A stretch of DNA of 64,000 nt from Lentisphaeria bacterium (lineage in GTDB: Bacteria; Verrucomicrobiota; Lentisphaeria; Victivallales; UBA1829): the NCBI GenBank assembly GCA_017503375.1, contig JAFVTF010000009.1, forward strand, positions 31,933-95,932, given 5' to 3'. The notes below the pieces were generated by a model. The model ran no database searches. It was not told the origin of the DNA and was given only the letters and a program-made list of their open reading frames with translations. This document shows positions 26,369-61,699 of this stretch, piece after piece. The stretch's first letter is position 1. Every line of letters starts with the position of its first letter. A program made the translations under genes and the position numbers.

Positions 26369-26821
26369 ATGAGAGTTCTGCTTCAGAGAGCCGCTGCCGG
26401 AAGTGTAACAATTTCCGGGGAATGTGTAGGAAAGATCGGAAAAGGATTGGTACTTCTCATCGGAGTTACTCATACAGACACCCCGGAAGATGTGGATTAT
26501 CTGGTGAAAAAATGTGCAAATCTGCGTATTTTTGAAGATGAGAACGGGAAAATGAACCGTTCTCTGCTGGACATTAACGGGGAAGTTCTTGCGGTATCGC
26601 AATTCACGTTGTACGGTGATTGTGTGAAGGGACGGCGTCCCGGGTTTGATGCGGCGGCGGAACCTGTCATGGCTGAAAAGCTGTATGATCTTTTTGTAGA
26701 AAAGATGAAGCAGGAAGGAGTCCGGAAAGTTGATACCGGGCGGTTCGGAGCAGATATGATGGTCTCCATTGAAAATGACGGACCTGTTACATTTATGCTG
26801 GAAAGCAAGGCAAAATCATGA
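26369..26821 (+). CDS. dtd: D-aminoacyl-tRNA deacylase
   Basis: 150 aa, MRVLLQR...GLVLLIGV...VSQFTLYGD...GRRPGF. Confidence 0.92.
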
Positions 26822-30752: not shown

Positions 30753-30953
30753 GCTCTGTTCCCAATAAAGGCTGCTTTGTGATCGGGGAAGAAAGGAAAA
30801 AATTTTGAGGAAATTTTTTCCCTTCTTCCCCGAACCCCACCATCCTTTTTCAAACCTTTTTGCGGCATTCCGATTTTTGCTGTGCAAAAATCAAAATGCC
30901 ATCTTTGGGTTAAAACAGCGGAAAAACTTACCTGCCTTTATTGGAAACAGAGC
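30753..30953 (+). repeat. family-1 structured intergenic repeat, copy A (about 201 nt)
   Basis: Bounded by a 20-nt imperfect TIR (GCTCTGTTCCCAATAAAGGC / GCCTTTATTGGAAACAGAGC). Contains two long hairpins at 30784-30832 and 30864-30900. The central part is near-identical to the reverse complement of 37233-37433. Confidence 0.85.
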
Positions 30954-30977
30954 CAAAAAAATTATGAGGGAGCTCAA

Positions 30978-37506: not shown

Positions 37507-38961
37507 TCACCGCAAAGAGGCAATCAAATCCATCAGACCTGTCAGGACTTCATGCGTCAGAAGCGGATTCAGCAGAGTGAATTTCAGATAAACGCTACCA
37601 TGACAAACTGTCTGCCCGATCACAACGCCATGCTCATGAAGCAATGCACGGCGGATCCGTTTGTTCATATCATCTGCACTTTCTGCACTTCCGGATTGAG
37701 GCAGAACACGGAAAACCACTGAACTGATTTCCGGCTTGATGACAACATCAAATTCCGGATTCTTTGACAGTTCCCCGTAAAGAAATGCCGCATTGTCAAT
37801 GCTCCGGGTGATAAGAGCGGACCAGCCTTCTTTTCCGCGCATCCGGAAGGACATCCAAACTTTCAACGCATCGAAACGGCGGGTCGTCTGCATGGACTTG
37901 TTCACCAGATTGATGTAGCCGTCTTCCTCATCCTCTTCCCTGTTCAGGTAATCGGCATGAATGGTGAGCGCATCGAAATATTTGCCGTCTTTCACCAGAG
38001 AAGCACTGCAGCTGATAGGCAGCATGAACATCTTATGAAAGTCCACTGTAATGGAATCACAATCTGCCAGACCAGCCACGCGGGAGGCATATTTTTCAGA
38101 AAGGATCACACCGCTGCCGTAAGCGGCATCAGCATGAAGCCACATCCCGTATTCATCGCAGATTGCCCGGAGTTCTTTCAGCGGGTCAATGCTGCCGAAA
38201 TCGGTTGTTCCGACGGTTGCGCCGATACAGAACGGAAGATTTCCGGCTTCCACATCCTTGCGGATCAGCTCTTTCAGTGCCGCGAGATCCATTTTCATGG
38301 CGTTATCGACAGGCACTTTCACGACAGCTTCATAACCCAATCCCATGAGATGAGCACTCTTTTCCATGGAGAAATGGGAAACTTCGGAGGTGTACATCCG
38401 GAATTTTCTGAAATCAGCGGGCAACCCGCACTTTTTCACATCCCATCCGAGTTTTTCGTTGCAGAAACGGTCACGTGCAAGAAGCAGGCCGGAAAGGTTT
38501 GACTGAGAACCGCCGGAAGTGAAAACGCCGTCTGCTTTTTCATCATAACCGTAAAGCGCACAAAGCTTGTTGATCACATCCACTTCGATTTCCGTTGCCA
38601 CGGGAGCCTGATCCCAGGAATCCATGGACTGGTTGAAGGTGGAAAGAATCAATTCCGCTGCAACAGATTCCAGCAGAACGGAACTGTGGAGATGCGCCAT
38701 ATAATTGGTGGAGGAAGGACGCAGGAAGTTGGGCAGGATCTTTTCAGAAACTTCTTTCAAAAGCTCATCGAACCCCATGGATTTTTCCGGAAGAAGTTCT
38801 TCCGTACGCACCAGTGCACGGAGATTTTCCGGGGTCATTCCCGCATAAGCCTTTCCATGGTCCATGGATGCCGCGACCGCACGGACCGTGGCATCCATCA
38901 TCCGGATATATTCTGCCTTGTCGGCAGCGGAAGAAGTGAGAAAAAGATTACTTTGTGACAT
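37507..38961 (-). CDS. ddc: PLP-dependent group II decarboxylase, L-2,4-diaminobutyrate decarboxylase-like
   Basis: About 484 aa with DFHKMFMLP (PLP-Lys) and HADAAYGSG. Immediately downstream of, and overlapping, a DABA aminotransferase gene, as in known dat-ddc pairs. The start ATG at 38961 overlaps dat by 14 nt. Confidence 0.75.
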   Translation of the reverse strand: MSQSNLFLTSSAADKAEYIRMMDATVRAVAASMDHGKAYAGMTPENLRALVRTEELLPEKSMGFDELLKEVSEKILPNFLRPSSTNYMAHLHSSVLLESVAAELILSTFNQSMDSWDQAPVATEIEVDVINKLCALYGYDEKADGVFTSGGSQSNLSGLLLARDRFCNEKLGWDVKKCGLPADFRKFRMYTSEVSHFSMEKSAHLMGLGYEAVVKVPVDNAMKMDLAALKELIRKDVEAGNLPFCIGATVGTTDFGSIDPLKELRAICDEYGMWLHADAAYGSGVILSEKYASRVAGLADCDSITVDFHKMFMLPISCSASLVKDGKYFDALTIHADYLNREEDEEDGYINLVNKSMQTTRRFDALKVWMSFRMRGKEGWSALITRSIDNAAFLYGELSKNPEFDVVIKPEISSVVFRVLPQSGSAESADDMNKRIRRALLHEHGVVIGQTVCHGSVYLKFTLLNPLLTHEVLTGLMDLIASLR

Positions 38962-40321
38962 CGCGGTCGACCTCACACACGACTTTTTCAAAGATGTCGA
39001 GCATGGTGTTGATCTCATCAAAGGTCACATTCAAAGCACAGAGACAGCGCATGACTGCACCGTGTCTTCCGCCTCTTTCCATCACGAGTTTGTTATTGAA
39101 ACATTCGTGCTGAACACGTGCTGCGATCTCACCGCTTCCGGGGAGTGCACCCAGTGAATCCTTTGCACCCTTGGGATCAACGAATTCACATCCGAGCATC
39201 AAACCTTTTCCGCGGATATCTCCGATAATGGAGACTTTATTTTTGAGTTCCAGCATCCGTTTCTGCATCATTTCACCTTTGGCGGTGACTTCTGCCAAAA
39301 ATTCGGGCTGGGAAACGCGTTTCATGACAACTGTTCCGGCACGCATGGCAAGCTGGTTTCCGCGGAATGTTCCGGCATGGGAACCGGGCTGCCACTTGTC
39401 AAGTTCCTTGTTGTAGATAACAACTGACATGGGCTGGGTTCCGCCGATTGCCTTGGAGACCAGAATCACATCGGGAACGATATCTGCATATTCAAATGCA
39501 AAGAATTTACCGGATCTTCCAACACCGCACTGGATTTCGTCCACGATCATGGGAATCCCCAGTTCTTTGGTCACGCGGCGGACTGTCTGGAGGAATTCAA
39601 CAGGAGCGGGGATCACACCGCCTTCGCCCTGAATGGGTTCCAGAATAACAGCTGCGGGCTTGGTAATACCACTTTCCGGATCCTTCAGCATACGTTCAAA
39701 ATATTCACAGCATGCCTTGGTTCCGGCTTCTCCGCCCAGTCCGAACGGACAGCGGTAGCTGTAAGGATACGGCATGAAATGAACGTCCGGCATCAGTGCG
39801 GGAACTTTGGATTTTGCTCCGAGGTTTCCGGTCAGAGACATGGGACCATGTCCCATTCCGTGATAAGCGCCGTGGAACGCGATCACAGAACTGCGTCCGG
39901 TTGCGGTTTTGCAAAGTTTGATTGCCGCATCAGTAGCATCTGTTCCGGAAGGACTGCAGAACTGAACTTTAACATTGTTTCTCATTTCTTCGGGAAGAAG
40001 AGCAAAGAGAGATTCCACGAAATCATGTTTGACGGGAGTCATCAGGTCGAGTGTGTGAAGCGGACGGTCGCTGGTGAGCATTTCAACCATGACCTGATTG
40101 ACTTCAGGATCGTTATGCCCGAGTGCAAGCGTTCCGGCACCGCAAAGGAAATCCAGATAACGGTTACCTTCCACATCTGTCAGCCAAACGCCTTTTGCCT
40201 TTACAAGGGAGAAAGGAAACTTTCTCGGATAGCTTCTGGCATTTGATTCAGTTTCTTCCTGACGAAGCATGTAGTCCGCATTGGTCAACATGCCCTGCGC
40301 ATTTTCTTTAAGTTCCATCAT
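38948..40321 (-). CDS. dat: diaminobutyrate--2-oxoglutarate aminotransferase (class III)
   Basis: 457 aa with RQEETESNARSYPRKFP, EPIQGEGGV and DEIQCGVGRSGKFFAFE, typical of Dat/EctB enzymes. Confidence 0.8.
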   Translation of the reverse strand: MMELKENAQGMLTNADYMLRQEETESNARSYPRKFPFSLVKAKGVWLTDVEGNRYLDFLCGAGTLALGHNDPEVNQVMVEMLTSDRPLHTLDLMTPVKHDFVESLFALLPEEMRNNVKVQFCSPSGTDATDAAIKLCKTATGRSSVIAFHGAYHGMGHGPMSLTGNLGAKSKVPALMPDVHFMPYPYSYRCPFGLGGEAGTKACCEYFERMLKDPESGITKPAAVILEPIQGEGGVIPAPVEFLQTVRRVTKELGIPMIVDEIQCGVGRSGKFFAFEYADIVPDVILVSKAIGGTQPMSVVIYNKELDKWQPGSHAGTFRGNQLAMRAGTVVMKRVSQPEFLAEVTAKGEMMQKRMLELKNKVSIIGDIRGKGLMLGCEFVDPKGAKDSLGALPGSGEIAARVQHECFNNKLVMERGGRHGAVMRCLCALNVTFDEINTMLDIFEKVVCEVDRDVTK

Positions 40322-40589: not shown

Positions 40590-42692
40590 TCAAAGTTTCT
40601 TCAGGACACATTCCCCGGCAGGGAGCTTTTTCCGGTCCCAAACAGCTGCTTCTGTTCCGAAGTTGGCGGCAAACTGCCAGCGGCTGCCGTCTGGAGCCGT
40701 AAATTCCACTGCCCGGAACATACCTTCCGCCGGAAGCTGTTTCAAAGAATATTTACTTCCTTCCGCTGCAGAACTTCCTGCAACAACTGCATAACCGGTA
40801 TCAGCCAGAATATCTCCGGGCATCCGGCGGACTCGCGGTGTGTTCTCCACTGTTCCGCAAATCTCATTCAAATGAAGAGAGGTCATCTGACGGCAATATT
40901 TCAGGTTTCCGCGGTCTTCCGGTGAGACATAAATCTTGAACGAATCGGCACCGTAACCGAGAACCAGTGTGATCTTGTCATCCACATTCACCCAGCTTGA
41001 TTTTGTATCAATTACTCCTTCCCCGGATCTTCTTCTGACTGTACGGGTGAAATTTTCACCTTTGTATGTGCGGATTTCCCCGTTGAATATATCGTTCGGG
41101 ATCTGCCATCCGATGGTACGGAGTGTGACAAGAGAATGTTCTTTCAGCACATGCACATATTCCAGAACGATCATACTTTTCCCGTCGGGCAGAGCCGCAC
41201 AGGCTGATTTGCTCTGCAATGTATGATATCTGCCTTCTCCTTCGCCCCAGGGTCCGGCTTCGATAAAATCGATTTTTCCGGAACTGATAAAACCGCCGGA
41301 AAATGATTTCCGGAACATTTCCGGGAAATCCTGAGCAACAAAATGTCCTTCATACTGTGCATGACCATTGCCGTGCCACTCTGCCAGATCGCTGCTGTCA
41401 AGCGGCAATGCAAGAACCATAGGACCTTCCCCGGCACGCCGTACAACAGAGCGGACGATTGATTCGCTCTTGACCATATCGGCACCGTGAAAATCATCAC
41501 TCCAGACAGCCGGCACTGTCTTTGCGGGTTTTGCGGCAGGCTGAAGCATTTTCCAATGACTGCGGACATACGCTGCAAATGCCAGAATTGCAAAAGGATC
41601 TGATTCCAGTCTGGTATAATAATAACGGCTCTGATAACTCATATCATCAAGACGTTTCCCGAAGAAGGAGCCGTTTCCGTTTATATTCTGTTCAAACCGG
41701 AGCAGTTCTGCCATTCCCTGTTCCAATCCGGCATCCGGCTTTTCCCCGTAACAATCCTGCATCATCAGAAGAATCGGCATAAGATACATCTGACAATAAC
41801 AGTATCTTGCGCGGGTATCTCCGCCGATCCGCAAGAGACGTCCGTCCGGGAAAATGAAATGTTTGACCACTTCCCAGAGATCTTTCACATGATGTTTCGC
41901 CTCTTCCGGCATTTCCCAGCCACGGGATTTACAGTAGAAATGGAGATAAGCCGCATGGGAAAGAGTGATGATACTGTAACCGATATTCATGTACCCGTGA
42001 TGGTCAAGAGAAAAATTTTCGGTGAAATTAGGTCCGACATACCATTCTTTCAGTGTTTTTTCACGGAATTTCTTATTGGATTTCTCATCTGATGGGATGG
42101 AAATGGAGTTCAGAAAGAGAGCACATGCTTTATCCAGATAAACCTCTCTGTTGGGGCAATCCGGATAATCCATTGCAGTTTTGAACAGAAAACTTGCGTT
42201 CCAGAAATTGGATTCCGGTTTGTTTCCGCTGCCGAAAATTCCGTCAATGGATGCCACTACCGGATAATTTTCCACGAGCCAGTCGGCTTCAAAACAGCGG
42301 AGATTCCGGAACGCCGTCTGATCTTTTTTGGTCAGATAAGGTTCCAATGCCAATTGTCCGGCAGCCATCCGTTCGAGTCCGAGAATGGAAATCCAGCTTC
42401 CGCCCCATTCTTCGCCGCAACTGTTTTTCAGCGGTCCGGTTTTATGGGAATAAAGATCGTACCGGAACAATTTCAAAGCAAGTTCCCGGGCTTCTTTTTC
42501 AATGACAGGGTCTTGTGTCTGTTCAGCAAGGATTGCCATTCCTCCGGCAACATTGAAATTACTCTGAACTGCCCAGTGAGCAGCTTCTCCGGTTCCGTAA
42601 TAAGCATGTTTTTTATCCACATCGCGGATTTCCTGTTTGGCAAACGGCAGGAAATTTTCCAGCATTTCCACATAATATGCACTGTTCAGCAT
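40590..42692 (-). CDS. hypothetical 700-aa protein; possible heparinase II/III-like or polysaccharide-lyase-like fold (weak)
   Basis: Long ORF. The ATG at 42692 has an AAGGAG RBS 8 nt upstream. No catalytic motif recognised with confidence. Transcribed divergently from the UbiA operon. Confidence 0.6.
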   Translation of the reverse strand: MLNSAYYVEMLENFLPFAKQEIRDVDKKHAYYGTGEAAHWAVQSNFNVAGGMAILAEQTQDPVIEKEARELALKLFRYDLYSHKTGPLKNSCGEEWGGSWISILGLERMAAGQLALEPYLTKKDQTAFRNLRCFEADWLVENYPVVASIDGIFGSGNKPESNFWNASFLFKTAMDYPDCPNREVYLDKACALFLNSISIPSDEKSNKKFREKTLKEWYVGPNFTENFSLDHHGYMNIGYSIITLSHAAYLHFYCKSRGWEMPEEAKHHVKDLWEVVKHFIFPDGRLLRIGGDTRARYCYCQMYLMPILLMMQDCYGEKPDAGLEQGMAELLRFEQNINGNGSFFGKRLDDMSYQSRYYYTRLESDPFAILAFAAYVRSHWKMLQPAAKPAKTVPAVWSDDFHGADMVKSESIVRSVVRRAGEGPMVLALPLDSSDLAEWHGNGHAQYEGHFVAQDFPEMFRKSFSGGFISSGKIDFIEAGPWGEGEGRYHTLQSKSACAALPDGKSMIVLEYVHVLKEHSLVTLRTIGWQIPNDIFNGEIRTYKGENFTRTVRRRSGEGVIDTKSSWVNVDDKITLVLGYGADSFKIYVSPEDRGNLKYCRQMTSLHLNEICGTVENTPRVRRMPGDILADTGYAVVAGSSAAEGSKYSLKQLPAEGMFRAVEFTAPDGSRWQFAANFGTEAAVWDRKKLPAGECVLKKL

Positions 42693-42772
42693 GATGGATG
42701 TCTCCTTCTTTTTCATAAATATCTTTATCAGCCCATTTCTTATTTGCTGATAATGTAATATCCCTTTATTTT

Positions 42773-42792
42773 TTTTCAAGTCGACTTGAAAA
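42773..42792. promoter_or_regulatory. perfect 20-bp palindrome containing back-to-back -35 boxes
   Basis: TTTTCAAGTCGACTTGAAAA. TTGAAA on each strand is followed at 16-17 nt by TATACT (plus, 42809-42814) and TACATT (minus). Confidence 0.55.
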
Positions 42793-42852
42793 TATTATGA
42801 TACAGCAGTATACTTTTCGCAAAGATTCAATAATTTAAATGAAGATTTGACG

Positions 42853-43776
42853 ATGATGCAGAAAGACTTTTTCTATTATTATCTGCGCTCCATGCGCCTT
42901 TACTACTGTTTTGTGACCGGCATGACGACTCTTGCCGGAACAGTAATGGCACACGCATTTTGCGGACATCCGTGGGGATGGCAGGACGCTGTTGTGCTGA
43001 CCGTCGGTTTTTTTGCCTGGGGCGTGAATCAAATCTTCAGTGACTGGTGCGACAGACAGGAAGATTCCATCAATGCACCGCACCGTCCGATGGTTTCCGG
43101 AAAACTTTCCCCGAAACCGGCATTGATTCTTTCCACATCGCTTATGCTCATTTTTGCTGCGGCATCGTATTTTGCAAGTCCGTGGACTCTGCTCTTTCTG
43201 GCAATCGGGGGAGGTTTGAATCTGTGCTACTCCAAACTGAAAAAAATTCCTGTTCTGAATTGTCTGACCTATGCAATGGCAATCACCTGCTGTGCATTAT
43301 ATGGATACTCCGGGACATGCGGAGTTCTGCCGGGGACATCATGTATTCTGCCGTTTCTTCTGATTCTTCCTGCCCATTTCCTCATGTGTTCTTTCAGTTA
43401 TAATAAGGATAAAGAGGGCGACCGCAGGAGCGGAATACGTACACTTCAAACGTTGTATCCGGACCGGATCACTCTGCCGGGACATTGGATTGCCGGGATG
43501 ATTTATACGTTTGCAATTTTTCATTTTACAAAATCCGGGGAAGACCGTTTGACAGTGATAATTTTCACCATTGCAGCAGTTCTGCTGTTGTCAAAGCTGA
43601 TTTTTTTGCTTGAAAAAGAGAAATATCATCCGGCGGTCTGCTGGAACTGTATGCTGTGTGTGTGCTGGCTGTGCAATCTGATTATTCCGTTTTTTCCGGG
43701 AACAATAATTCTTGCACCGCTTTCTCTTTTGATAATATGGCTGATCTTCAGGTGGTACCCCGATGAAAAAGAGTAA
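42853..43776 (+). CDS. UbiA-superfamily membrane prenyltransferase
   Basis: About 307 aa and polytopic. Asp-rich motifs NQIFSDWCDRQED and YNKDKEGD. The track ORF starts at TTG 42847; the first ATG is at 42853. Confidence 0.8.
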   Translation: MMQKDFFYYYLRSMRLYYCFVTGMTTLAGTVMAHAFCGHPWGWQDAVVLTVGFFAWGVNQIFSDWCDRQEDSINAPHRPMVSGKLSPKPALILSTSLMLIFAAASYFASPWTLLFLAIGGGLNLCYSKLKKIPVLNCLTYAMAITCCALYGYSGTCGVLPGTSCILPFLLILPAHFLMCSFSYNKDKEGDRRSGIRTLQTLYPDRITLPGHWIAGMIYTFAIFHFTKSGEDRLTVIIFTIAAVLLLSKLIFLLEKEKYHPAVCWNCMLCVCWLCNLIIPFFPGTIILAPLSLLIIWLIFRWYPDEKE

Positions 43777-45013
43777 ATTCATAACCGGATTTTCCAAACT
43801 TCTGTTTTATGCACGGATGTCGCTTGTCTGTGCATGGCGGTTCCGTTCAATTCCTGTTTTGTGGAAAGCAGGGAAGTTTACAGGAGTGTTTTTCAAACAC
43901 AAACTTCTGAAACTTGGAACGGGAGAATACAAACTTGATTTTTACATGCCGCGCTATCCGTCGGAAGCCTTTTTCACTGCAATGGCAGATAAACTGACAG
44001 AGAAACCGCCGCGCCCGGTCAGCGTAGTCTGGTCCATTTCCAAAGCATGTGCCTATCATTGTCCGCATTGTTATCAGGGACATGATCCGGCAAAAGAAAT
44101 GCCTTTGGAAAAGATGAGACAGTCTGTCCGTGAACTGTGCCGGAGCGGTGTTTCCGCATGGGCAGTGGAAGGCGGCGAACCGCTGCTCCGATTTGAACGG
44201 CTGGAGGCTCTTCTGGAGGAGACAAAAGGGCTGGAAGTCTGGGTAAACTCCACCGGGCACAGTGCAACGCCGAAAAAGATTGCCCGGATGAAAGAACTGG
44301 AAGTGACCGGAATCATGAGTTCGATACATTCCGTTGATCCGGCAATCCATGATGCGTTTACCGGAGTTCCGGGTTCATTTGAAACAGCTTTGAATTTTCT
44401 GAAAGAGTGCCGGAATGCGGGATTTCTCACCGGATTCAATACGGTTTTGAATGACGATCAGATTATTGCCGGGGAAATTGATAAAATCATGGCTCTGGCT
44501 GCGGAAAATCAGTGCGATTACATTCAGCTGATCCACCCGAAAGCCTGCGGAAAATGGGGCGGCTGCAATTTTGATACAGCACGCCATGAAGAGGCGGTGC
44601 GGATCGCTTGCGAAGCCCAGAAAAGATATAATTCTTCTGCCGAAAAACATGCACCGATCCTGACAGCTCAAGTTTTTGAAGAATCGGAAGAGATGCTGGG
44701 CTGTACAGCCGGAGCCATTGACCGCTTTTATGTGGGCTGCTCCGGAGAAGTCCAGCCGTGTGAATTCGTGAATATCTCCTTCGGAAATCTGAATGAAGAA
44801 CCGTACGAACGCATTTATGAACGGATGCGGAAGGCTTTTCCGGTTCCAAGCTGCGACTGGCTCTGCTGCGCCCATGCGGAAGAAATCGCAGCAGCGGTTG
44901 CAGAAAACGGCGGAAAAACTCCTATTCCGTGGGAACAGACCCGCGAACTGATCCGAAACTGGAAATGCGGGGAACCGACACCCGTTTATGAACGGATGGG
45001 GATTTACCGATGA
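43763..45013 (+). CDS. radical SAM enzyme with a SPASM/twitch-like C-terminal Cys cluster
   Basis: 416 aa with CAYHCPHC (CX3CX2C), GGEPLL, and C-terminal GCTAGAIDRFYVGCSGEVQPCEF. Overlaps the UbiA gene by 14 nt. Confidence 0.8.
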   Translation: MKKSKFITGFSKLLFYARMSLVCAWRFRSIPVLWKAGKFTGVFFKHKLLKLGTGEYKLDFYMPRYPSEAFFTAMADKLTEKPPRPVSVVWSISKACAYHCPHCYQGHDPAKEMPLEKMRQSVRELCRSGVSAWAVEGGEPLLRFERLEALLEETKGLEVWVNSTGHSATPKKIARMKELEVTGIMSSIHSVDPAIHDAFTGVPGSFETALNFLKECRNAGFLTGFNTVLNDDQIIAGEIDKIMALAAENQCDYIQLIHPKACGKWGGCNFDTARHEEAVRIACEAQKRYNSSAEKHAPILTAQVFEESEEMLGCTAGAIDRFYVGCSGEVQPCEFVNISFGNLNEEPYERIYERMRKAFPVPSCDWLCCAHAEEIAAAVAENGGKTPIPWEQTRELIRNWKCGEPTPVYERMGIYR

Positions 45014-45885
45014 AACTTCTGCTTCTGATGAATCCATCTTCCCGCGGCGGACTCGGAAAACAACTCTGGAACAGATTATTTTCTGCCATCGAAAAAAATG
45101 GATTGATATATCAGAAACACATTCTTTCCAATATAGAAGAAGCGTATGAACTGGCAAAATCAGCGACCGGATTTGATGCTGTTGCGGCGGTTGGCGGGGA
45201 TGGAACAGTCAATGCAGTTGCAGCAGGTGTATTGGAAAATCCTGATCCAGATTTGAAATTCGGGGTACTTTACACCGGAACGAGTCCGGATTTCTGCCGT
45301 TTTCACGGAATTCCCACGGAACCGGAAGAAGCAGTGAATATTCTTTGCGGAAATTTCAGCCGGAAAATCCCGGTCCTTGTTGCGAACGGGAAACCGTTTT
45401 TCTGTTCCTGCAATCCGGGGATGGGTGCGGAAGTTGCGGCCGGAGCAAACCGGATGCGTCCGTTTTTCGGAGATGGTATCGGAACGTTTCTTGCATTGTT
45501 GAAAGCCCTGCTCCGCAACAGAAAATGGAATTTCAAGCTCAACAGAGAACGTGACCTTGCCAATTGTAATCATCTGCTTTTCACACGGATGCCATATATT
45601 GCAGGCGGAATCAACATTGATTTGCCGGACTTGAAAGATGATGAATTTGTGGTATGGTATCTTCAGGATATTTCCCGCCGGAAATGGTTATCCATTCTGC
45701 CCGGACTTTACCGGGGAGATGTGCAAGGACATCTGGAAATTCTGAAAGAATCAGTCCGGCTGGAATGTCCGGAAGAGTGTCCGGTTGAATTCGATGGTGA
45801 TCCGCATGGTTCATTGCCGTTGGAAATTTCTTTTTCACCCCGGAAATTGAATCTGATCTGCAGAAAAGAAGGAACTGAAAAATGA
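45010..45885 (+). CDS. DAG-kinase-fold lipid kinase (YegS/BmrU family)
   Basis: 291 aa with LLLMNPSSRGG and AAVGGDGTVN motifs. ATGA overlap with the upstream gene. Confidence 0.75.
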   Translation: MKLLLLMNPSSRGGLGKQLWNRLFSAIEKNGLIYQKHILSNIEEAYELAKSATGFDAVAAVGGDGTVNAVAAGVLENPDPDLKFGVLYTGTSPDFCRFHGIPTEPEEAVNILCGNFSRKIPVLVANGKPFFCSCNPGMGAEVAAGANRMRPFFGDGIGTFLALLKALLRNRKWNFKLNRERDLANCNHLLFTRMPYIAGGINIDLPDLKDDEFVVWYLQDISRRKWLSILPGLYRGDVQGHLEILKESVRLECPEECPVEFDGDPHGSLPLEISFSPRKLNLICRKEGTEK

Positions 45886-46763
45886 AAGAACATGAAATGA
45901 TCAGGAACATTGCCGGAATTCATGGTTCAACCCCTTTTTCTGCCGATGCGGAACAGTTCGGAAACATGCTTTATTCAATGGACAGTTTTTCCAAAACAGA
46001 AGATTTTTTTGAATTCACTCCTCCGGAAATCATCGGGCGTAACATGGCGGCGGCAGCTTGCTCCGATCTGCTCGCCAGCGGAATAAAACCGGATTTTCTG
46101 ATTCAGGCATGGAACATGGATTCTGCTGAGACAGAAGAATATTATCTGGAAATCAGCCGGGGAATCGAATCAGTTCTTCAGTATTACGGCGCAATCTGTA
46201 TCGGCGGAGATATGGGGTGTTCAAGTCCGTGGAACTGGACAGCCACAGTCGGCGGAAATTTGAAATCTGCCCCTGTCCGGCGGAAAGCATCGCAGAAAAT
46301 TCCCTTTGATCTTTATCTTTCCGGCAGTCTGGGCGATGCCAATCTTGCAGCCTTTTTCCGGAAAGAAATGCCCTTGATCGAACTCCGGAACCCTGTTCCG
46401 CAGAATTCGCTCTTTGCTACTGATACCAGCGGCGGATTCTTTGATGCGTTGGAAAACTTCCGCCGTGTAAACCCGGAACTTTCCGTTGAACTTGAAAATA
46501 TTCCCTGTGCCATACAGGAACCGCTCCCATTCCCCGAAGAGTTCCTCCTGATCGGCGGAGTAGGAGAATATGAATTGCTTTATGCCGTTCCGGCCGGATT
46601 CCCGGCTGAGGGAATCAAAATCGGAACAGGTGATTTTTCCGGAAAGGGAATCCATTTCAAACACGGCGGAACAATGCACTCACCACCTCCGGATTACAGA
46701 AATATTCCGCCGGAGCAATGGTTCGCGAAAACGGAAGAATATTACCGGGAGGTGTTCCGATGA
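45882..46763 (+). CDS. PurM/ThiL-superfamily (AIR-synthase-related) ATP-utilising enzyme
   Basis: 293 aa with IGRNMAAAACSDLLASGIKP, CIGGDMG and ATDTSGGFFDAL, resembling ThiL/PurM/HypE family blocks. ATGA overlap upstream. Confidence 0.6.
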   Translation: MKEHEMIRNIAGIHGSTPFSADAEQFGNMLYSMDSFSKTEDFFEFTPPEIIGRNMAAAACSDLLASGIKPDFLIQAWNMDSAETEEYYLEISRGIESVLQYYGAICIGGDMGCSSPWNWTATVGGNLKSAPVRRKASQKIPFDLYLSGSLGDANLAAFFRKEMPLIELRNPVPQNSLFATDTSGGFFDALENFRRVNPELSVELENIPCAIQEPLPFPEEFLLIGGVGEYELLYAVPAGFPAEGIKIGTGDFSGKGIHFKHGGTMHSPPPDYRNIPPEQWFAKTEEYYREVFR

Positions 46764-47998
46764 AATCTCTTTTTGAACGGTGTTATCAATCCGGGAAAAA
46801 ACTCACTGACAAGACAGAACTTCTTGCTCAGGAATTGAACGATTCCCCGCCCGCTTATTTTGACGGATTGAATATGACTTTGCTGGAAGGAGTAAAGCCT
46901 GTTACAAAAGTCAGATTGCCTTCCGGTGAGATCAAAGAAATGCTCATGCTCGGCAGTAACTCGTTTCTGAATCTGAACTGGCATCCGCGTGTGATCGAAG
47001 CCGAACGGAACGCATTGGATAAATACGGTTCCGGAGCAGGATCGCCTCCCCTTTATTCCGGAACAACAGATTTACATGAGGAACTGGAAACGGAACTGGC
47101 AAAATTCTGCGGAACAGAAGCCGCGTTGCTCTTCCCTGCCGGATATTCCGGAAATATCGGTGTGCTTTCCGGCTTGTGCCGTCCGGGAGATGCAATTTTC
47201 TGTGACAGCTCCAATCATGCGTCTCTTTATGACGGTGCGCGTCTTTCCGGAGCACGCGTTATTCCTTACCTCCATTTGAATCCAAAGCACCTGGAACGCT
47301 GTTTGAAGCAGTCTGAAGAACCGGGAAAGCTCATTGCAACCGATGGAGTTTTTTCCATGGAAGGTTCACTGGCTCCCGTGGATGAACTGGTCCGTCTGAA
47401 AGAAAAATATGATTCTCTCCTGATGGTGGATGATGCACACGGATTCTGGGCTGTGGGACCGGATGGAATGGGAACTGCCAGTGTGTTCGGAGTCCGGGAC
47501 AAGGTCGATCTGCATTACGGAACATTCAGCAAAGCATTGGGAAGTGTCGGCGGATTCTGTGCAGGGAAACGGCATGTGATCGACTATTTGCGGTATTACG
47601 CACGCAGTACATTCTTTTCCAGCGCACTTCCTGCGGCAACGGCTGCAGCAATTCTGGAATCCATCCGTATTGTCAAAGAAGAACCGGAACATCTGAAAAA
47701 TCTCAAACGGAACCGTAATTTCTTCCAAAGTGAATTGGAAAAGCGGGGAATCAATACCTTGAACAGCCGTTCTGCGATTATTCCTGTACTGGTCGGCGAT
47801 GAAGAAAAACTCGGAAAGCTCCAGATGGCGCTGTTTGATGCGGGCATTTTCTCCAATATCGGCACAACTCCGGCAGTCAATGCCTCCAAATGCCGTTTGC
47901 GTCTGAATGTCATGGCGACTCATTCTCTTGAACAATTGAACTTTGCCGTGGAAACCATTGAAAAACTGGCGAAAAAATTTCAGGTGATCCCAGCATGA
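46760..47998 (+). CDS. PLP-dependent alpha-oxoamine synthase (BioF/Spt/Kbl family acyltransferase)
   Basis: LGSNSFLNL, SNHASLYDG, ATDGVFSMEG, MVDDAHG, and GTFSKALGSVGGF (PLP-Lys). The ATG at 46760 overlaps the upstream stop (ATGA) and follows a GGGAGG RBS. Confidence 0.85.
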   Translation: MKSLFERCYQSGKKLTDKTELLAQELNDSPPAYFDGLNMTLLEGVKPVTKVRLPSGEIKEMLMLGSNSFLNLNWHPRVIEAERNALDKYGSGAGSPPLYSGTTDLHEELETELAKFCGTEAALLFPAGYSGNIGVLSGLCRPGDAIFCDSSNHASLYDGARLSGARVIPYLHLNPKHLERCLKQSEEPGKLIATDGVFSMEGSLAPVDELVRLKEKYDSLLMVDDAHGFWAVGPDGMGTASVFGVRDKVDLHYGTFSKALGSVGGFCAGKRHVIDYLRYYARSTFFSSALPAATAAAILESIRIVKEEPEHLKNLKRNRNFFQSELEKRGINTLNSRSAIIPVLVGDEEKLGKLQMALFDAGIFSNIGTTPAVNASKCRLRLNVMATHSLEQLNFAVETIEKLAKKFQVIPA

Positions 47999-48972
47999 CA
48001 AAAATATTGATCACAGGTGCGGGCGGTTATATCGGTTCCAATGCAGTGGAATATTTCATGAAACGGGGATTCGATGTGACCGGGATGATCCGGAATAAAG
48101 TTGCCCCCAGATTTCAGGACTCCGGAGCCAAAGCGATCCGGGCGGATCTCTATGATCTGAAATCTCTGGATCATCTTTTTCAATCCGGAAGTTATGATTA
48201 TGTCATTCACATAGCAGCACTGGCAAGCGATACCGGACTGCGGGAGAAATTCCGGCTTGCCAACTTTGAAGCAGTAAAACATCTTGCAAATCTTTCCATG
48301 AAAAACAACGTGAAACGGTTTGTTTATCTTTCCACCGCAGATGTTTACGGACTTCATGATTTTCACGGAGAAACGGAAGATCAGCTCTCATTCGATCATG
48401 ATGTAACAAATCCTTATCCGGAATTCAAAATCAAATCGGAAGAGTGGCTGGCAGAAAATCTTCCTGCAGAAAGATTTTCCTGTGTCCGCCCCTGTGTTGT
48501 ATTCGGCAACGGCGACACCACCATAACGCCCCGTGCAATTGCTTTCCTGAAAAGTTCGCCGTTCGTAATCCATTTCGGCAAATGGAAAGGAAAAAACCGC
48601 TGGCCGCTGGCACATGTGGAAAATGTCTGCCGGACACTTCACGGAGCCATGCTTCTTCCGGAGGCTGGCGGAAAAGGTGCAACTGTTCTGGATTCAAAAT
48701 ATACCGATCTGTCCCGATATTACCGGGAACTTGCGGCAGAATATCTTCCGGAGAAAACAATCCGGGAACTTACTCTTCCCCGATGGGTGATTCTCCCCGC
48801 AGCATGGTTCGCAAGCACATTCTCCGGAGAAAAACCGCTGTTTGATCCTACAATCTACGCATTGGATACCATCATACACAATCTGGATTTTTCCAATCAA
48901 CGGATGCTTGAATGGATTCATAAGGTCGGCGAACAGGAATTTGTGGAAAATGATGTTTCCAATAGAGGGTGA
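47995..48972 (+). CDS. extended SDR (NAD-dependent epimerase/dehydratase/reductase family)
   Basis: 325 aa with ILITGAGGYIGS and the catalytic YPEFK (YxxxK). ATGA overlap upstream. Confidence 0.8.
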   Translation: MTKILITGAGGYIGSNAVEYFMKRGFDVTGMIRNKVAPRFQDSGAKAIRADLYDLKSLDHLFQSGSYDYVIHIAALASDTGLREKFRLANFEAVKHLANLSMKNNVKRFVYLSTADVYGLHDFHGETEDQLSFDHDVTNPYPEFKIKSEEWLAENLPAERFSCVRPCVVFGNGDTTITPRAIAFLKSSPFVIHFGKWKGKNRWPLAHVENVCRTLHGAMLLPEAGGKGATVLDSKYTDLSRYYRELAAEYLPEKTIRELTLPRWVILPAAWFASTFSGEKPLFDPTIYALDTIIHNLDFSNQRMLEWIHKVGEQEFVENDVSNRG

Positions 48973-48974
48973 TT

Positions 48975-49190
48975 TGTGATCAGGGAAGAGGGGAAAAACG
49001 GTAGAAGAATTTTCCGCTGATAAAAGATACCGTCCCCATTTTTCTCTTTCAAACTATGGCATATTCATTTTTTTTGTCATAAAAAAATGAATATGCCGCA
49101 AAAGATTTTGAAAAAGGGTGATGGGGTTCGGGGAAGCGGGAAAAAGACTTTTCTCAAAAGTTTTTTCCCGCTTCCCCGATTTCAAACAGC
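48975..49190 (-). repeat. family-1 structured intergenic repeat, divergent copy C
   Basis: Same orientation as copy B. It shares the linker GCCGCAAAAG-TTTGAAAAAGG-TGATGGGGTT and both hairpins (49068-49096 region and 49128-49178), but with different stem sequences. Confidence 0.7.
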
Positions 49191-58052: not shown

Positions 58053-58420
58053 GGATCAACAAGTTGTAATATCCTGAACTTTTCCGGAAAAGGGTCGTGA
58101 TGTTCCGGAAAAAGAAAAGAGCCACTGTGTGGAAACGGGATATCTTTGATCGAGATGATTCTGAAAATAGGTGTTTTGGGGAGGGGCCCCAAGGTTTTGT
58201 TCAAGCGGGAATTCCGGAGTTCTTCCGGTATTGCGGATTTCACGCTTCGACAAAACAACCTTTTCAGAGCACCCCGGCAGAGTATTCCTTTCAAATCACA
58301 GCAGTGCAAAAAACAAAAGCATAAAATTGGATTTCAGGAAAAGCCGGGGCCGATGACGTTTTATTCCGTCACCGGGTCTCTTCCTTTTTTTGAAAATCCG
58401 GAAAGAAAGGAATGTTGTAA

Positions 58421-61141
58421 ATGACAACAGCCGCTCAGAAAAAGTACGTTTATCTTTTCGGAAAAGGAATTTCCGAAGGCCGCGCAGACATGAAGAACCT
58501 TCTCGGAGGAAAAGGTGCAAACCTTGCTGAAATGGCAATCCTCGGACTCCCCGTTCCGGCAGGTTTCACCATCACCACAGAATGCTGCGTGGATTACTTC
58601 AACAACGGCATGAAAATGCCCGAACAGCTCAAGAATGATGTCCCTGCCGCACTTGCAGAAGTTGAAAAACTCATGGGAATGAAATTCGGCGATCCCGAAA
58701 ATCCGCTCCTCATCTCCTGCCGCTCCGGTGCACGTTCCAGTATGCCCGGTATGATGGAAACAGTCCTCAACGTCGGTCTCTCCTCCGTCACAATCCCCGG
58801 ACTCATCAGGAAGACCGGAAATGAACGGTTCGTCTACGATGCTTACCGCCGTCTGATCATGATGTATTCTGACGTTGTGATGGAAAAAGCAGAAGGACTG
58901 GAACCCGCTGCCGGAAAAGGAATCCGCAAGCTCCTCGACGAAAAACTGGAAGAACTGAAAAAAGCAAAAGGTTATGCTTCCGATACAGATCTGACCGTGG
59001 AAGATTTGAAAGCTCTCTGCGAAGAATTCAAAGCGATCATCAAAAAAGAACTCGGAACAGAATTCCCCGATGATGCCATGGCTCAGCTCAATGGCGGTAT
59101 CGGCGCAGTTTTCAAAAGCTGGAACGGTAAAAAAGCTGTCGCTTACCGCAGAATCGAAGGCATTCCCGATGACTGGGGAACCGCTGTCAACGTGCAGTCC
59201 ATGGTTTTCGGAAACATGGGCGATACCTCCGCAACAGGTGTTGCCTTCACCCGTGACCCTGCAACAGGCGACAACAAATTCTATGGCGAATGGCTCATCA
59301 ATGCTCAGGGCGAAGACGTTGTGGCTGGAACCCGTACTCCCAACCCCTTGAATGATGACACCAAGAACGAACAGAACAAGCTTCTGCCCTCCATGCAGCA
59401 GCTTTATCCCGCTCTTTACAAGCAGCTCGATGATATCCGCACCAATCTGGAACAGCACTATCATGACATGCTGGATATTGAATTCACCATCCAGGAAGGT
59501 CATCTTTACATGCTCCAGTGCCGCGTTGGAAAACGCACCGGATGCGCAGCTGTCCACATGGCTCTGGATATGCTCAATGAAGGTCTTATTGATGAAAAGA
59601 CCGCTGTTCTCCGCGTAGCTCCTGCCCAGCTGGATGAACTGCTTCACCCGATCCTTGACGCAAAAGCTGAAAAAGCCGCTGCTGATAAACTCTTTGTGAA
59701 AGGACTTCCCGCAGGTCCCGGCGGTGCTGTCGGTAAAATCGTCTTCACCTCCGAAGACTCCATGGCTCTCTCCGCAAAAGGCATTGCAAATATCCTCGTC
59801 CGCGAAGAAACCAATCCGGAAGACGTGGAAGGTATGCGTTCTGCAAACGGTATTCTCACTTCCCGCGGCGGTATGACAAGCCATGCGGCTCTCGTTTGCC
59901 GCGGATGGGGGAAATGCTGTATTGTCGGCGCAGGAGAATTGGTTATCGACGAAGAAGCAAAAACCGTTTCCGCAGGCGGCTTCACATTCAAAGAAGGCGA
60001 TTACATCAGCTTGAACGGTTCCAAAGGTTATGCTTATGCAGGCGCAATCGACATGATGGACGCAAGCGAAAACACCGACTTCCAGGAATTCATGAAGCTG
60101 GTCGATAAATTCCGTACTCTCGGAGTCCGCACCAATGCCGACACCGCAGATGATGCAGCTGTCGCCCGCAAGTTCGGTGCTGAAGGAATCGGTCTCTTCC
60201 GTATTGAACACATGTTCTACGGCAAAAACAGTGAAGAACCGCTGTTTGCTCTCCGCAAGATGATCCTCTGCAGCAGTAAAGAAGAACGTATTGCTGCTCT
60301 CAATGAGCTTATGCCCATGATGAAAAAGAGCATCATCGCCACCTTCACCGCCATGAAGGGTCTGCCTGTAACCATCCGTCTGATGGATCCCCCTCTCCAT
60401 GAATTCGTTCCCAAAGCTGCTGACAAAGTCGCTCAGATCGCTGAAAGTCTGAACATCACCGTGGATGAAGTGGAAAAACGCGCTGAAGCGATCCACGAAT
60501 CCAACCCGATGATGGGACATCGCGGCTGCCGTCTGGGAGTGACCTTCCCCGAAGTCACCGCAATGCAGGCCCGCGCTATCTTTGAAGCTGGTATCGAATG
60601 CGGTATCGAACCGGAAATCATGATTCCTGTCACCTGCGACGGAAACGAACTGAAAGATCAGAAAGCCGTCATCAGCAAGGTCGCGGAAGAAGTGAAGAAA
60701 GACTTCAACCTTTCCGAACTCAAATACATGGTCGGTACCATGATCGAAATCCCCCGTGCTGCGATCCTCGCCGGAAGCATGGCTCAGGAAGCGGAATTCT
60801 TCTCCTTCGGTACCAATGACTTGACTCAGATGACATTCGGTTTCAGCCGCGATGACGTCGGAGCATTCCTGGGTGATTATCTTGACAAGAAGATTCTGCC
60901 TTCTGATCCGTTCCAGACCATTGATGTGGAAGGTGTCGGATTCCTGATCCGTCATGCAGTAACCGAAGGCCGCAAGGTCCGTTCCGATCTGAAGGTTGGT
61001 ATCTGCGGCGAACAGGGCGGGGAATCTGCTTCTGTTGCATTCTGCTATGCAATGGGCTTGAACTATGTTTCCTGCAGTCCATTCCGCGTACCCATCGCCA
61101 AACTGGCTTCTGCTCATGCAGCGATCGTTGCCGGCAAATAA
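58421..61141 (+). CDS. ppdK: pyruvate, phosphate dikinase
   Basis: 906 aa with an ATP-grasp N-terminus, the phospho-His motif TSRGGMTSHAALV, and a C-terminal PEP-utilising TIM barrel (GICGEQGG). Confidence 0.96.
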   Translation: MTTAAQKKYVYLFGKGISEGRADMKNLLGGKGANLAEMAILGLPVPAGFTITTECCVDYFNNGMKMPEQLKNDVPAALAEVEKLMGMKFGDPENPLLISCRSGARSSMPGMMETVLNVGLSSVTIPGLIRKTGNERFVYDAYRRLIMMYSDVVMEKAEGLEPAAGKGIRKLLDEKLEELKKAKGYASDTDLTVEDLKALCEEFKAIIKKELGTEFPDDAMAQLNGGIGAVFKSWNGKKAVAYRRIEGIPDDWGTAVNVQSMVFGNMGDTSATGVAFTRDPATGDNKFYGEWLINAQGEDVVAGTRTPNPLNDDTKNEQNKLLPSMQQLYPALYKQLDDIRTNLEQHYHDMLDIEFTIQEGHLYMLQCRVGKRTGCAAVHMALDMLNEGLIDEKTAVLRVAPAQLDELLHPILDAKAEKAAADKLFVKGLPAGPGGAVGKIVFTSEDSMALSAKGIANILVREETNPEDVEGMRSANGILTSRGGMTSHAALVCRGWGKCCIVGAGELVIDEEAKTVSAGGFTFKEGDYISLNGSKGYAYAGAIDMMDASENTDFQEFMKLVDKFRTLGVRTNADTADDAAVARKFGAEGIGLFRIEHMFYGKNSEEPLFALRKMILCSSKEERIAALNELMPMMKKSIIATFTAMKGLPVTIRLMDPPLHEFVPKAADKVAQIAESLNITVDEVEKRAEAIHESNPMMGHRGCRLGVTFPEVTAMQARAIFEAGIECGIEPEIMIPVTCDGNELKDQKAVISKVAEEVKKDFNLSELKYMVGTMIEIPRAAILAGSMAQEAEFFSFGTNDLTQMTFGFSRDDVGAFLGDYLDKKILPSDPFQTIDVEGVGFLIRHAVTEGRKVRSDLKVGICGEQGGESASVAFCYAMGLNYVSCSPFRVPIAKLASAHAAIVAGK

Positions 61142-61630: not shown

Positions 61631-61665
61631 GAGGATGTATGAATCAGGGATGCACCTCTTTTTTT
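61631..61665 (+). terminator. terminator-like hairpin plus T7 inside the MTase leader
   Basis: GAGG-a-TGTAT / loop / ATGCA-CCTC followed by TTTTTTT. Its 5' GAGG is shared with a competing long-range helix (61503-61518 paired with 61618-61634). Confidence 0.4.
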
Positions 61666-61699
61666 GTGGTGTTTCCCGGAAATACGGAGAATACCACAG

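Follow-up and report, generated by a model that had tools for sequence, protein, structure and literature searches.

A conserved six-gene operon of anaerobic PVC-superphylum bacteria and the prenylated sphingoid-type lipid that it may make

An operon of six co-directional genes occupies positions 42853-48972 on the forward (+) strand of a 64,000-nucleotide stretch of a Lentisphaeria bacterium genome (GenBank assembly GCA_017503375.1, contig JAFVTF010000009.1, positions 31,933 to 95,932; the whole stretch is referred to below as the window). The operon encodes a UbiA-superfamily membrane prenyltransferase, a radical-SAM enzyme (rSAM), a DAGK-fold lipid kinase, a ThiL-like PurM-fold ATP enzyme, an alpha-oxoamine synthase (AOS), and an extended short-chain dehydrogenase/reductase (SDR). 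The grouping is almost certainly not due to chance and represents a genuine co-functional operon, and its product is probably a lipid. We propose tentatively, with a confidence somewhat below even, that anaerobic bacteria of the Planctomycetes-Verrucomicrobia-Chlamydiae (PVC) superphylum use these enzymes to make a membrane or envelope lipid, in which a long-chain amino alcohol of the sphingoid type would bear an isoprenoid chain together with a head group of phosphate or diphosphate. Three of the components (the AOS, the reductase, and the lipid kinase) echo bacterial sphingolipid synthesis, whereas the UbiA-rSAM pair and the ThiL-like enzyme are without precedent there.

Architecture and conservation of the operon

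The six open reading frames (ORFs) encode products of 307, 416, 291, 293, 412, and 325 amino acids, and the same starts are found in independent gene calls on identical metagenome contigs. Adjacent ORFs overlap by 14, 4, 4, 4, and 4 nt; the first junction reads ATGAAAAAGAGTAA, and the other four are of the ATGA type. The description of one tight operon in an earlier reading of this DNA made from its letters alone (the sequence-only reading) is thus accurate, and its six family assignments agree with Pfam for each protein. The motifs quoted in that reading (NQIFSDWCDRQED, YNKDKEGD, CAYHCPHC, GGDGT, GTFSKALG, GAGGYIGS, and YPEFK) are all present in the translations.

Related loci form two sets. 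The genome set consists of 67 loci found with a profile of the ThiL-like protein in one-genome-per-species collections, and its hosts belong to Lentisphaeria/Victivallales, Kiritimatiellia, Verrucomicrobia, Thermoguttaceae, and one Armatimonadia bin. Many of the carriers are rumen or gut organisms, and a metagenome-assembled genome (MAG) assigned to Victivallis vadensis is among them (L017). The six families form one contiguous block in 36 of the 67 loci, with the order UbiA-rSAM-DAGK-ThiL-AOS-SDR in 21 and AOS-UbiA-rSAM-DAGK-ThiL-SDR in 15, and most of the remaining loci are interrupted by contig ends. A 5.28-Mb contig carries a stand-alone operon of exactly six genes. The environmental set consists of 62 loci from a second scan with a divergent profile, in which the presence of the six families was checked by tblastn; they occur together in at least 16 of these loci, and most of the set has a seven-gene form with an Old Yellow Enzyme (OYE) reductase between ThiL and AOS. 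The same six families therefore co-occur well beyond the window, and the term orphan, which the sequence-only reading applied to the operon, does not describe its distribution: the operon is widely conserved in anaerobic PVC bacteria.

The gene order is variable. In one Victivallaceae clade, UbiA and rSAM form a single protein of 706-725 amino acids (confirmed in L015, at 169-2331, as one uninterrupted ORF). Among the deep variants, L135 and L130 have the order ThiL-ketoacyl synthase (KAS)-SDR-rSAM-UbiA-OYE-AOS, with L135 running on into DAGK and a gene for an AI-2E-family transporter, and the L130 contig stopping after AOS. L122 has the order MMPL exporter-KAS-polyketide synthase (PKS)-type dehydratase (DH)-AOS-SDR-rSAM-DAGK-ThiL, and L123 (9992-16417) and L124 (9992-16366) have the order ThiL-AOS-DAGK-UbiA-classical SDR-B12/N2-type rSAM. 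KAS genes occur in six loci of these variants. A ferredoxin-nitroreductase fusion gene is located 3′ of the SDR gene in 16 loci and an OYE gene is present in nine genome loci; neither is found in the window. Because the gene content is kept despite shuffling, fusion, and non-orthologous replacement, these arrangements are strong evidence for one pathway that needs six activities.

Other substitutions and additions are restricted to particular lineages. In L123 and L124 (the latter from an 860-kb marine contig), an adh_short SDR and a B12-binding/N2-type rSAM stand in place of the extended SDR and the SPASM-like rSAM. In some Kiritimatiellia (L032, L036, L039, L040, L044, L047, L048, and L052), a gene for an AAA_14/DUF4143 ATPase (381-433 amino acids) is located between the DAGK and ThiL genes; this gene, probably a selfish element tolerant of the DAGK/ThiL junction or exploiting it, was not counted among the pathway genes. 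A gene for a MarR-family regulator (about 170 amino acids) is located just 5′ of UbiA in the Victivallales loci L020, L021, L024, L025, L064, and L070, and is absent from the window. In L064 (5038-6780) and L066 (about 646-2400), a 580-amino-acid fusion of a GNAT/FeeM-like N-acyltransferase with a CobD/HisC-like pyridoxal phosphate (PLP) domain is encoded directly 5′ of UbiA. Since the CobD/HisC-like domain belongs to enzymes acting on phospho-amino alcohols or acids, this fusion suggests that the lineage concerned may form an amino-alcohol phosphate as an intermediate and may carry out N-acylation. It was rejected as a general seventh component, being confined to these two loci and absent from all 62 metagenome loci.

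Each protein belongs to a superfamily that includes housekeeping enzymes, and the locus might accordingly be taken for ordinary metabolism: either bacterial ceramide synthesis of the canonical kind, or housekeeping genes (BioF/Kbl, ThiL, MenA/UbiA/CyoE, and DgkB) that have come to lie side by side by chance. However, no operon protein reaches any equivalog cutoff in NCBIfam (June 2026); the synteny, fusions, and replacements extend over four or more phylum-level lineages, which excludes chance; and the operon has no ceramide synthase-type acyltransferase, while three of its six families take no part in any known route to sphingolipids. Both forms of this explanation are effectively excluded. 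Full-text literature searches (by enzyme family, taxon, and lipid term) returned no description of the six-family combination, and the description of Kiritimatiella glycovorans gives generic polar-lipid data only (PMC5148204). Together with the NCBIfam result, this upholds the earlier statement that the operon matches no described pathway.

Properties of the six enzymes

The UbiA protein (42853-43776, +; 307 amino acids) is a member of its superfamily (PF01040, 101 bits against a cutoff of 34; 7e-29) and is polytopic, with hydrophobic segments throughout. A profile built from 15 orthologues is nearest to Methanocaldococcus jannaschii digeranylgeranylglyceryl phosphate (DGGGP) synthase (6.6e-17), followed by chlorophyll synthase (3e-12) and aromatic prenyltransferases (about 1e-4); the single sequence matches DGGGP synthase at 5.6e-08. 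In DGGGP synthase, the characteristic motifs are N62/D66-x3-D70, Y125-x5-K130, and D183..D187 (PMC9385802). The operon enzyme retains an Asp/Glu motif 1, a Y...K motif 2, and a DxxxD motif 3, of which motifs 2 and 3 align with DGGGP synthase, and its D64..E70-D71 and D186-x3-D190 residues are invariant in the 15 orthologues. Motif 1 is altered: the position of N62 is occupied by Ser in the window (Asn in the family consensus), and the equivalent of D66 is variable across the family. The DGGGP synthase equivalogs NF009521 and NF009522 are not reached (59.7 against 296 and 49.5 against 353 bits), and the scores for CyoE (41 against 210), UbiA (30 against 275), and MqnP (20 against 375) are lower still. 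The enzyme is therefore outside the housekeeping MenA/UbiA/CyoE groups (no score above 64 bits, with cutoffs of 180-494), membership in which the sequence-only reading would have taken as a sign of chance juxtaposition. UbiA enzymes are reported to group by acceptor (Hemmi 2004, as cited in PMC9385802).

Archaeal diether synthesis (PMC9385802) is the closest comparison for this protein. The operon UbiA is nearest to DGGGP synthase, has motifs 1 (acidic), 2 (Y...K), and 3 (DxxxD) in common with it, and would likewise act on a one-chain lipid with a phosphorylated three-carbon head. In contrast to the archaeal system, it scores 60-64 bits against equivalog cutoffs of 269-353, has a motif 1 of the form (N/S)D-x5-ED instead of NDxxDxxxD, is partnered or fused with an rSAM, and belongs to bacterial PVC hosts; the operon encodes neither geranylgeranylglyceryl phosphate (GGGP) synthase nor glycerol-1-phosphate dehydrogenase.

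The UbiA-type enzyme might alternatively use a non-prenyl electrophile. The alcohol made by the AOS and SDR (and rSAM) would be converted to a diphosphate by the two ATP enzymes, and the UbiA-type enzyme would use this diphosphate to alkylate another acceptor, by a logic seen in the pairing of hydroxymethylpyrimidine phosphate kinase with thiamine-phosphate synthase and in that of MfnE with MfnF in methanofuran synthesis. An alcohol-forming AOS-SDR pair, two sequential ATP enzymes, and a diphosphate-using transferase are indeed encoded in one operon, and a UbiA relative, decaprenyl-phosphate phosphoribosyltransferase, takes the non-prenyl diphosphate phosphoribosyl pyrophosphate (PRPP); the operon enzyme scores 42.8 bits against this NCBIfam family. 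However, a primary or secondary carbon beside an ammonium group is a poor precursor of a carbocation, the UbiA protein is nearer to DGGGP synthase and ChlG than to the PRPP-using clade, and such a route is without precedent in lipid metabolism, all of which makes it improbable.

The rSAM (43763-45013, +; 416 amino acids) has the CxxxCxxC motif of its superfamily (CAYHCPHC) in a partial TIM barrel (PF04055, 67.7 bits, 1.8e-18), preceded by two N-terminal helices and followed by a Cys-containing C-terminal domain that is partially SPASM/twitch-like. Cys96, Cys100, and Cys103, together with Cys314, Cys333, and Cys368, are invariant in 56 homologues, and one or two further C-terminal Cys residues are frequent. 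The Cys-rich, SPASM-like tail noted in the sequence-only reading is present in part: the Pfam SPASM match is barely above its cutoff (22.2 against 21.5), and the seven-Cys motif is not conserved. The three invariant C-terminal Cys residues suggest one auxiliary cluster of the twitch-like kind, and not a full SPASM pair. No other operon protein is as well conserved (58-93% identity between loci). Its AlphaFold 2 (AF2) model (pLDDT 90.6) aligns with rSAM cores, and the Foldseek neighbors are generic (SkfB, BlsE, SuiB, viperin, DesII, PqqE, MoaA, and anSME, with TM scores of about 0.5); sequence searches of the PDB returned weak matches only.

Known lipid-modifying rSAM enzymes include archaeal tetraether synthase (Tes/GDGT-MAS) and the ring synthases, and BtrN, DesII, and anSME are twitch/SPASM enzymes acting on small molecules. 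With these enzymes the operon rSAM would share oxygen-independent radical chemistry and a C-terminal auxiliary domain bearing Cys residues, and DesII and anSME are among its structural neighbors; its position close to the membrane, which is shown by the UbiA fusion, is a further likeness. Unlike them, it aligns at a TM score of about 0.5 with any solved rSAM, has three invariant C-terminal Cys residues where SPASM proteins have seven, and is replaced by a B12/N2-type rSAM in L123 and L124.

The AOS (46760-47998, +; 412 amino acids) has the PLP-binding Lys, the stacking His, and the Asp at the pyridine nitrogen that define the BioF/Kbl/SPT/ALAS superfamily of fold-type I PLP enzymes (Aminotran_1_2, 3.6e-56). 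It aligns over its full length with Sphingobacterium multivorum serine palmitoyltransferase (SPT), with NHAS, DDAH, and GTFSK conserved; this is its closest solved relative (295 bits), and the solved cysteate-C-fatty acyltransferase scores 204 bits. The top NCBIfam model is the Bacteroidetes-type SPT, and the SPT equivalogs NF047600, NF047599, and NF047603 are not reached (363 against 640, 297 against 500, and 237 against 670 bits). The enzyme is also outside the equivalogs for BioF (TIGR00858, 343 against 426) and Kbl (NF005394, 333 against 460; TIGR01822, 277 against 493), the placement that the sequence-only reading had singled out for checking. SPT enzymes are characterized by a GTFSKS PLP motif and a GSR loop facing the amino-acid substrate (PMC10196870). 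When mapped on S. multivorum SPT, the window AOS retains Asn52, the PLP-stacking His, the Asp, and the PLP-Lys, but has GTFSKA in place of GTFSKS, AGSPPLYSGT (the GSPPLY substrate loop) in place of CAGSRFLNGT, and Phe in place of Tyr54.

Three types of AOS are found in the cluster. Type A is present in the window and 19 loci. Type B is a Kiritimatiellia paralogue that replaces type A, with GTFSKS/GSRFLNG in 11 loci and 494-500 bits against the SPT cutoff of 640. Type C is the environmental form and is Kbl-like (391 bits against a cutoff of 460). A pairing of Kbl with an SDR-type threonine dehydrogenase, which is raised by type C, was rejected on the grounds that the KAS, DH, and MMPL neighbors and the SPT-like type B favor long chains. 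A tetrapyrrole reading, with the AOS as ALAS, the rSAM as AhbD or NirJ, and the UbiA protein as ChlG or CyoE, was likewise rejected: the AOS scores 244 bits for ALAS against 363 for SPT, and the rSAM is far under the AhbD and NirJ cutoffs.

The extended SDR (47995-48972, +; 325 amino acids), encoded directly after the AOS, has the features of its group (Epimerase, 107 bits, 9.4e-31; 3Beta_HSD, 2.8e-14), including an N-terminal GxxGxxG Rossmann motif for NAD(P) binding (GAGGYIGS), LST, and the S...YPEFK catalytic pattern. Its top NCBIfam model is OleD, a 2-alkyl-3-oxoalkanoate reductase and thus a lipid 3-oxo reductase; the equivalogs are not reached (OleD, 80 against 580; HpnA, 60 against 368; GalE, 59 against 262). 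Its 608 homologues at E<=1e-20 carry generic names only.

The kinase (45010-45885, +; 291 amino acids) is a soluble DAGK-fold lipid kinase of the DgkB/YegS type, with GGDGT, DAGK_cat (73 bits, 1.6e-20), and YegS_C (26.5 bits, 6e-06) matches and no hydrophobic segment. Its closest solved relatives are 4wer (a full-length match) and DgkB, and its best equivalog score is 74 against 274.

The ThiL-like enzyme (45882-46763, +; 293 amino acids; AIRS N-domain, 1e-09) has a PurM fold. Its AF2 model (pLDDT 94.3) matches Aquifex aeolicus ThiL best in Foldseek (TM 0.70-0.77, 16-18% identity), followed by HypE, SelD, and PurM, and its acidic and GGD motifs show no variation among 58 homologues. Thus the two-domain fold, the acidic residues of the N-domain, and GGD are conserved as in ThiL. 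The ThiL motif is D-x-S-D-G; in its place the operon enzyme has D-x-S-G-G, with Gly replacing one metal-binding Asp of this C-domain motif. The thiL equivalog TIGR01379 is not reached (62 bits against 184). Unlike ThiL, the operon enzyme belongs to a small separate family (95 clusters at E<=1e-30 among 1.84 billion representatives) that is confined to the cluster context, and no thiamine genes are adjacent to the cluster in any locus; its substrate in this context cannot be thiamine phosphate.

A possible product and route

That the product is a lipid is probable because of the KAS, DH, and MMPL genes in the deep variants, and the polytopic UbiA protein, the accessory reductases (OYE or nitroreductase type) of other loci, and the similarity of the SDR to OleD point the same way. 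The product might instead be a diffusible small molecule, for example a pyrazine, a redox cofactor bearing a prenyl group, or an amino- or hydroxy-ketone of the autoinducer type: AOS enzymes make CAI-1-type signals, the operon AOS is a distant match to CqsA (209 bits against a cutoff of 428), a MarR regulator gene is located 5′ of the operon in six loci, and an AI-2E-family transporter gene ends the L135 variant. These anaerobes may also lack quinones, as K. glycovorans does (PMC5148204). This outcome is nevertheless quite unlikely, since the KAS, PKS-type dehydratase, and MMPL neighbors and the lipid-type relatives of the UbiA protein, SDR, and kinase indicate long chains, and the AOS is much nearer to SPT than to CqsA. 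The location of the operon in ordinary core chromosome (rpoB/rpoC, EF-G, EF-Tu, L1, dxr-rseP, uxuA, and genes for carbohydrate-active enzymes), with a GC content of 0.478 against 0.473 for the window, also argues against it.

For the structural lipid that we favor, a sphingoid backbone is supported by an AOS nearest to Bacteroidetes SPT, by the Kiritimatiellia type B enzyme with SPT motifs, and by the lack of an N-acyltransferase in the window operon. Prenylation of a phospholipid-like acceptor is supported by a UbiA profile nearest to DGGGP synthase and far from the aromatic prenyltransferases, and phosphoryl transfer by a ThiL-like enzyme with the full PurM fold and conserved metal and ATP motifs. 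The sphingoid-like prenylated lipid envisaged in the sequence-only reading fits the DGGGP synthase-like UbiA protein, the SPT-like AOS paralogue, the UbiA-rSAM fusions, and the KAS/dehydratase/MMPL neighbors; the identity of the product stays a prediction.

In the proposed route, condensation of a small serine-like amino acid and a long-chain acyl thioester by the AOS would yield a 2-amino-3-ketone, and the extended SDR would reduce this ketone to the amino alcohol. The DAGK-fold kinase would then phosphorylate a hydroxyl of this single-chain amino-alcohol lipid; sphingosine and ceramide kinases, which have the same fold, carry out such a phosphorylation. The DGGGP synthase-like UbiA protein may transfer a polyprenyl group from polyprenyl diphosphate to a free OH (or NH2) of the phosphorylated one-chain backbone. 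Such a step would parallel that of DGGGP synthase, which adds a second chain to GGGP, and would supply a second hydrophobic tail in place of the N-acyl group added by ceramide synthase. The rSAM, located at the membrane beside the UbiA protein (and fused to it in some species), may perform oxygen-independent C-H chemistry on the prenylated lipid, and a C=C bond could afterwards be reduced by the flavin reductase (OYE or ferredoxin-nitroreductase) that many relatives encode. The ThiL-like enzyme would use ATP to convert a phosphate monoester to a diphosphate, either on the lipid head group or on a prenyl phosphate donor. We infer all of these steps from the enzyme families, their conservation, and the fusions, which are themselves observed.

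Bacterial ceramide synthesis uses Spt, a 3-keto reductase (CerR or the Bacteroides KDS reductase), bCerS, and ceramide kinase. The operon resembles this pathway in its SPT-nearest AOS, the epimerase-family SDR directly following it, the DAGK-fold kinase, and the GTFSKS paralogue of Kiritimatiellia. It differs in that the AOS is under the SPT cutoff (363 against 640) and has a GSPP loop and GTFSKA, and in that a UbiA prenyltransferase, an rSAM, and a ThiL-like enzyme are added. Neither the window operon nor the conserved gene set includes a ceramide synthase-type N-acyltransferase (the GNAT fusion being limited to L064 and L066), and no acyl carrier protein or acyl-ACP synthetase genes neighbor the cluster at the loci. 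In capnine/sulfonolipid synthesis, cysteate acyltransferase and dehydrocapnine reductase similarly form an AOS-NAD(P)H reductase pair that yields a long-chain amino alcohol. Unlike that system, the operon has an AOS that matches SPT (295 bits) more closely than it does the cysteate enzyme (204 bits), lacks a cysteate synthase, and has additional UbiA, rSAM, and kinase genes.

The assignment of the two ATP enzymes to the acceptor is where an alternative role has most to offer. The DAGK-fold kinase and the ThiL-like enzyme may work in series on the donor, converting a prenol (for example, geranylgeraniol or gut chlorophyll-derived phytol) to prenyl phosphate and then to prenyl diphosphate for the UbiA protein; the acceptor would be the unphosphorylated AOS/SDR amino alcohol, and the product a prenylated amino lipid without a phosphate head. 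UbiA enzymes require a diphosphate donor with proximal unsaturation (PMC9385802), phosphate-to-diphosphate conversion is the chemistry of ThiL (by fold match), and many of the carriers come from the rumen or gut, where phytol of this origin could be met. The UbiA-rSAM-DAGK-ThiL core is contiguous, and AOS and SDR are sometimes located elsewhere. A precedent is given by the geranylgeraniol and geranylgeranyl-phosphate kinase activities of Sulfolobus (Ohnuma 1996, as cited in PMC9385802). Against donor activation, the window contains dxr (for DXP reductoisomerase) followed by rseP (26818-29654, +); the organism therefore very likely makes its isoprenoid precursors by the methylerythritol phosphate (MEP) route, which bears on donor supply to the UbiA protein and would make salvage unnecessary. 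The cluster is also equally common in sediment and freshwater metagenomes, and we know of no phosphorylation of a prenol by a DAGK-fold or PurM-fold enzyme. For DGGGP synthase-like enzymes, moreover, the phosphate of the acceptor matters for binding (PMC9385802). We regard donor activation as unlikely, although less so than the other alternatives.

Several observations weigh against the proposed phosphorylated, prenylated sphingoid lipid. Because the substrate loop of the window AOS is unusual (GSPP for GSR, Phe for Tyr54) and the in-cluster AOS is Kbl-like elsewhere, the amino acid, the chain length, and even the decarboxylation are uncertain. UbiA-rSAM-DAGK-ThiL is the tightest module, interrupted in the genome loci by the AAA_14/DUF4143 insertions alone, and the AOS and/or SDR genes are non-local in about nine loci (L035, L036, L040, L044, L047, L050, L053, and L065, with L037 having ThiL alone); the two kinases may thus serve the prenyl donor and not the amino alcohol. 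The DAGK-fold kinase has no detected specific kinship to sphingosine or ceramide kinases, the identity of the ThiL-like enzyme to ThiL is just 16-21%, and the similarity of the UbiA protein to DGGGP synthase is low (65 bits). Foldseek gives no functional neighbor for the rSAM, with tetraether synthase outside the top 50 PDB matches, and the rest of the genome may hold a gene for a ceramide synthase.

If the favored route is nonetheless followed to its end, the product may represent a previously undescribed lipid class, in which the DGGGP synthase-like enzyme would join an isoprenoid to the phosphorylated sphingoid-type backbone through an ether or N-linkage, and an rSAM dedicated to the task (and fused in some species) would remodel the chain without oxygen; we consider this possible but doubtful. 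In that same doubtful case, sphingolipid logic would be combined with that of archaeal ether lipids, and the ThiL-type enzyme might be the first known PurM-fold kinase of a lipid phosphate (or prenyl phosphate).

Genomic setting and biological meaning

A candidate sigma-70-like promoter, TTGAAA-N17-TATACT (42786..42814, +; 10 of 12 consensus positions), is located 39 nt 5′ of the first start codon. The promoter named in the sequence-only reading is thus present, and is the top-scoring sigma-70-like match in 42.5-49.4 kb, as a match to consensus only. The repeat element that the same reading placed 3′ of the operon is instead a pair of local hairpins, and a dispersed repeat is ruled out, since a search of the window found each arm sequence at its own site only. 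The first is a perfect hairpin with 17-nt arms and a 6-nt loop (49058..49097; about -21 kcal/mol). The second, also perfect, has 16-nt GC-rich arms between A and T runs (49130..49177; -39 kcal/mol on the + strand and -37 on the - strand) and is a candidate bidirectional terminator. Both lie within the 244-nt gap preceding a convergent gene and are most simply explained as terminators. At the Rfam gathering score, tRNAs were the only families found in the window and six related loci, with no riboswitch.

The nearest genome is a Lentisphaeria MAG from roe-deer caecum (66-93% protein identity over the six genes). With core genes flanking the operon and its GC content near that of the window, a horizontal-transfer island is unsupported. 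A 729-amino-acid ORF divergent from the operon (40590-42779, -) is without a Pfam match and is kept in place only in the closest relatives (L014 and L016; 51-53% identity), and was excluded as a member of the system for these reasons. Further upstream, Pyridoxal_deC and Aminotran_3 genes (37507-40321, -; about 74 nt overlap as listed) form a pair typical of diaminobutyrate aminotransferase/decarboxylase (diaminopropane or polyamine synthesis), which is not found beside the operon in other genomes. A DUF3413-Sulfatase membrane protein of YejM/PbgA- or EptA-like, envelope-lipid-related architecture is encoded 10 kb 5′ of the operon (30882-32816, +). At the edge of the window, genes for an EcoRI-type adenine methyltransferase and a GmrSD_N-HNH endonuclease overlap by 11 nt (61664-63818, +); the GC content at 62-64 kb is 0.40, and this segment resembles a small island of restriction or defence genes. 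At 58361-61117 (-) and 58421-61141 (+), two ORFs, each longer than 900 amino acids, cover the same DNA on opposite strands, the minus-strand product being without a Pfam match.

If the proposed pathway is correct, anaerobic Lentisphaerae, Kiritimatiellia, Verrucomicrobia, and Planctomycetes of the rumen, gut, digesters, and sediments would produce a hitherto undescribed lipid of the membrane or envelope. Prenylation would replace N-acylation in it, as a third way to add a second tail to a sphingoid base. New activities would then be assigned in three large superfamilies, namely a ThiL-like lipid- or prenyl-phosphate kinase, a membrane-coupled lipid rSAM, and a DGGGP synthase-like bacterial prenyltransferase. 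Such a lipid would bear on the mixing of lipid chemistries across the bacterial-archaeal 'lipid divide' and on the interpretation of biomarkers in anoxic sediments. Bacterial sphingolipids are known immunomodulators, and the product would also be a candidate host-facing lipid of gut PVC bacteria.

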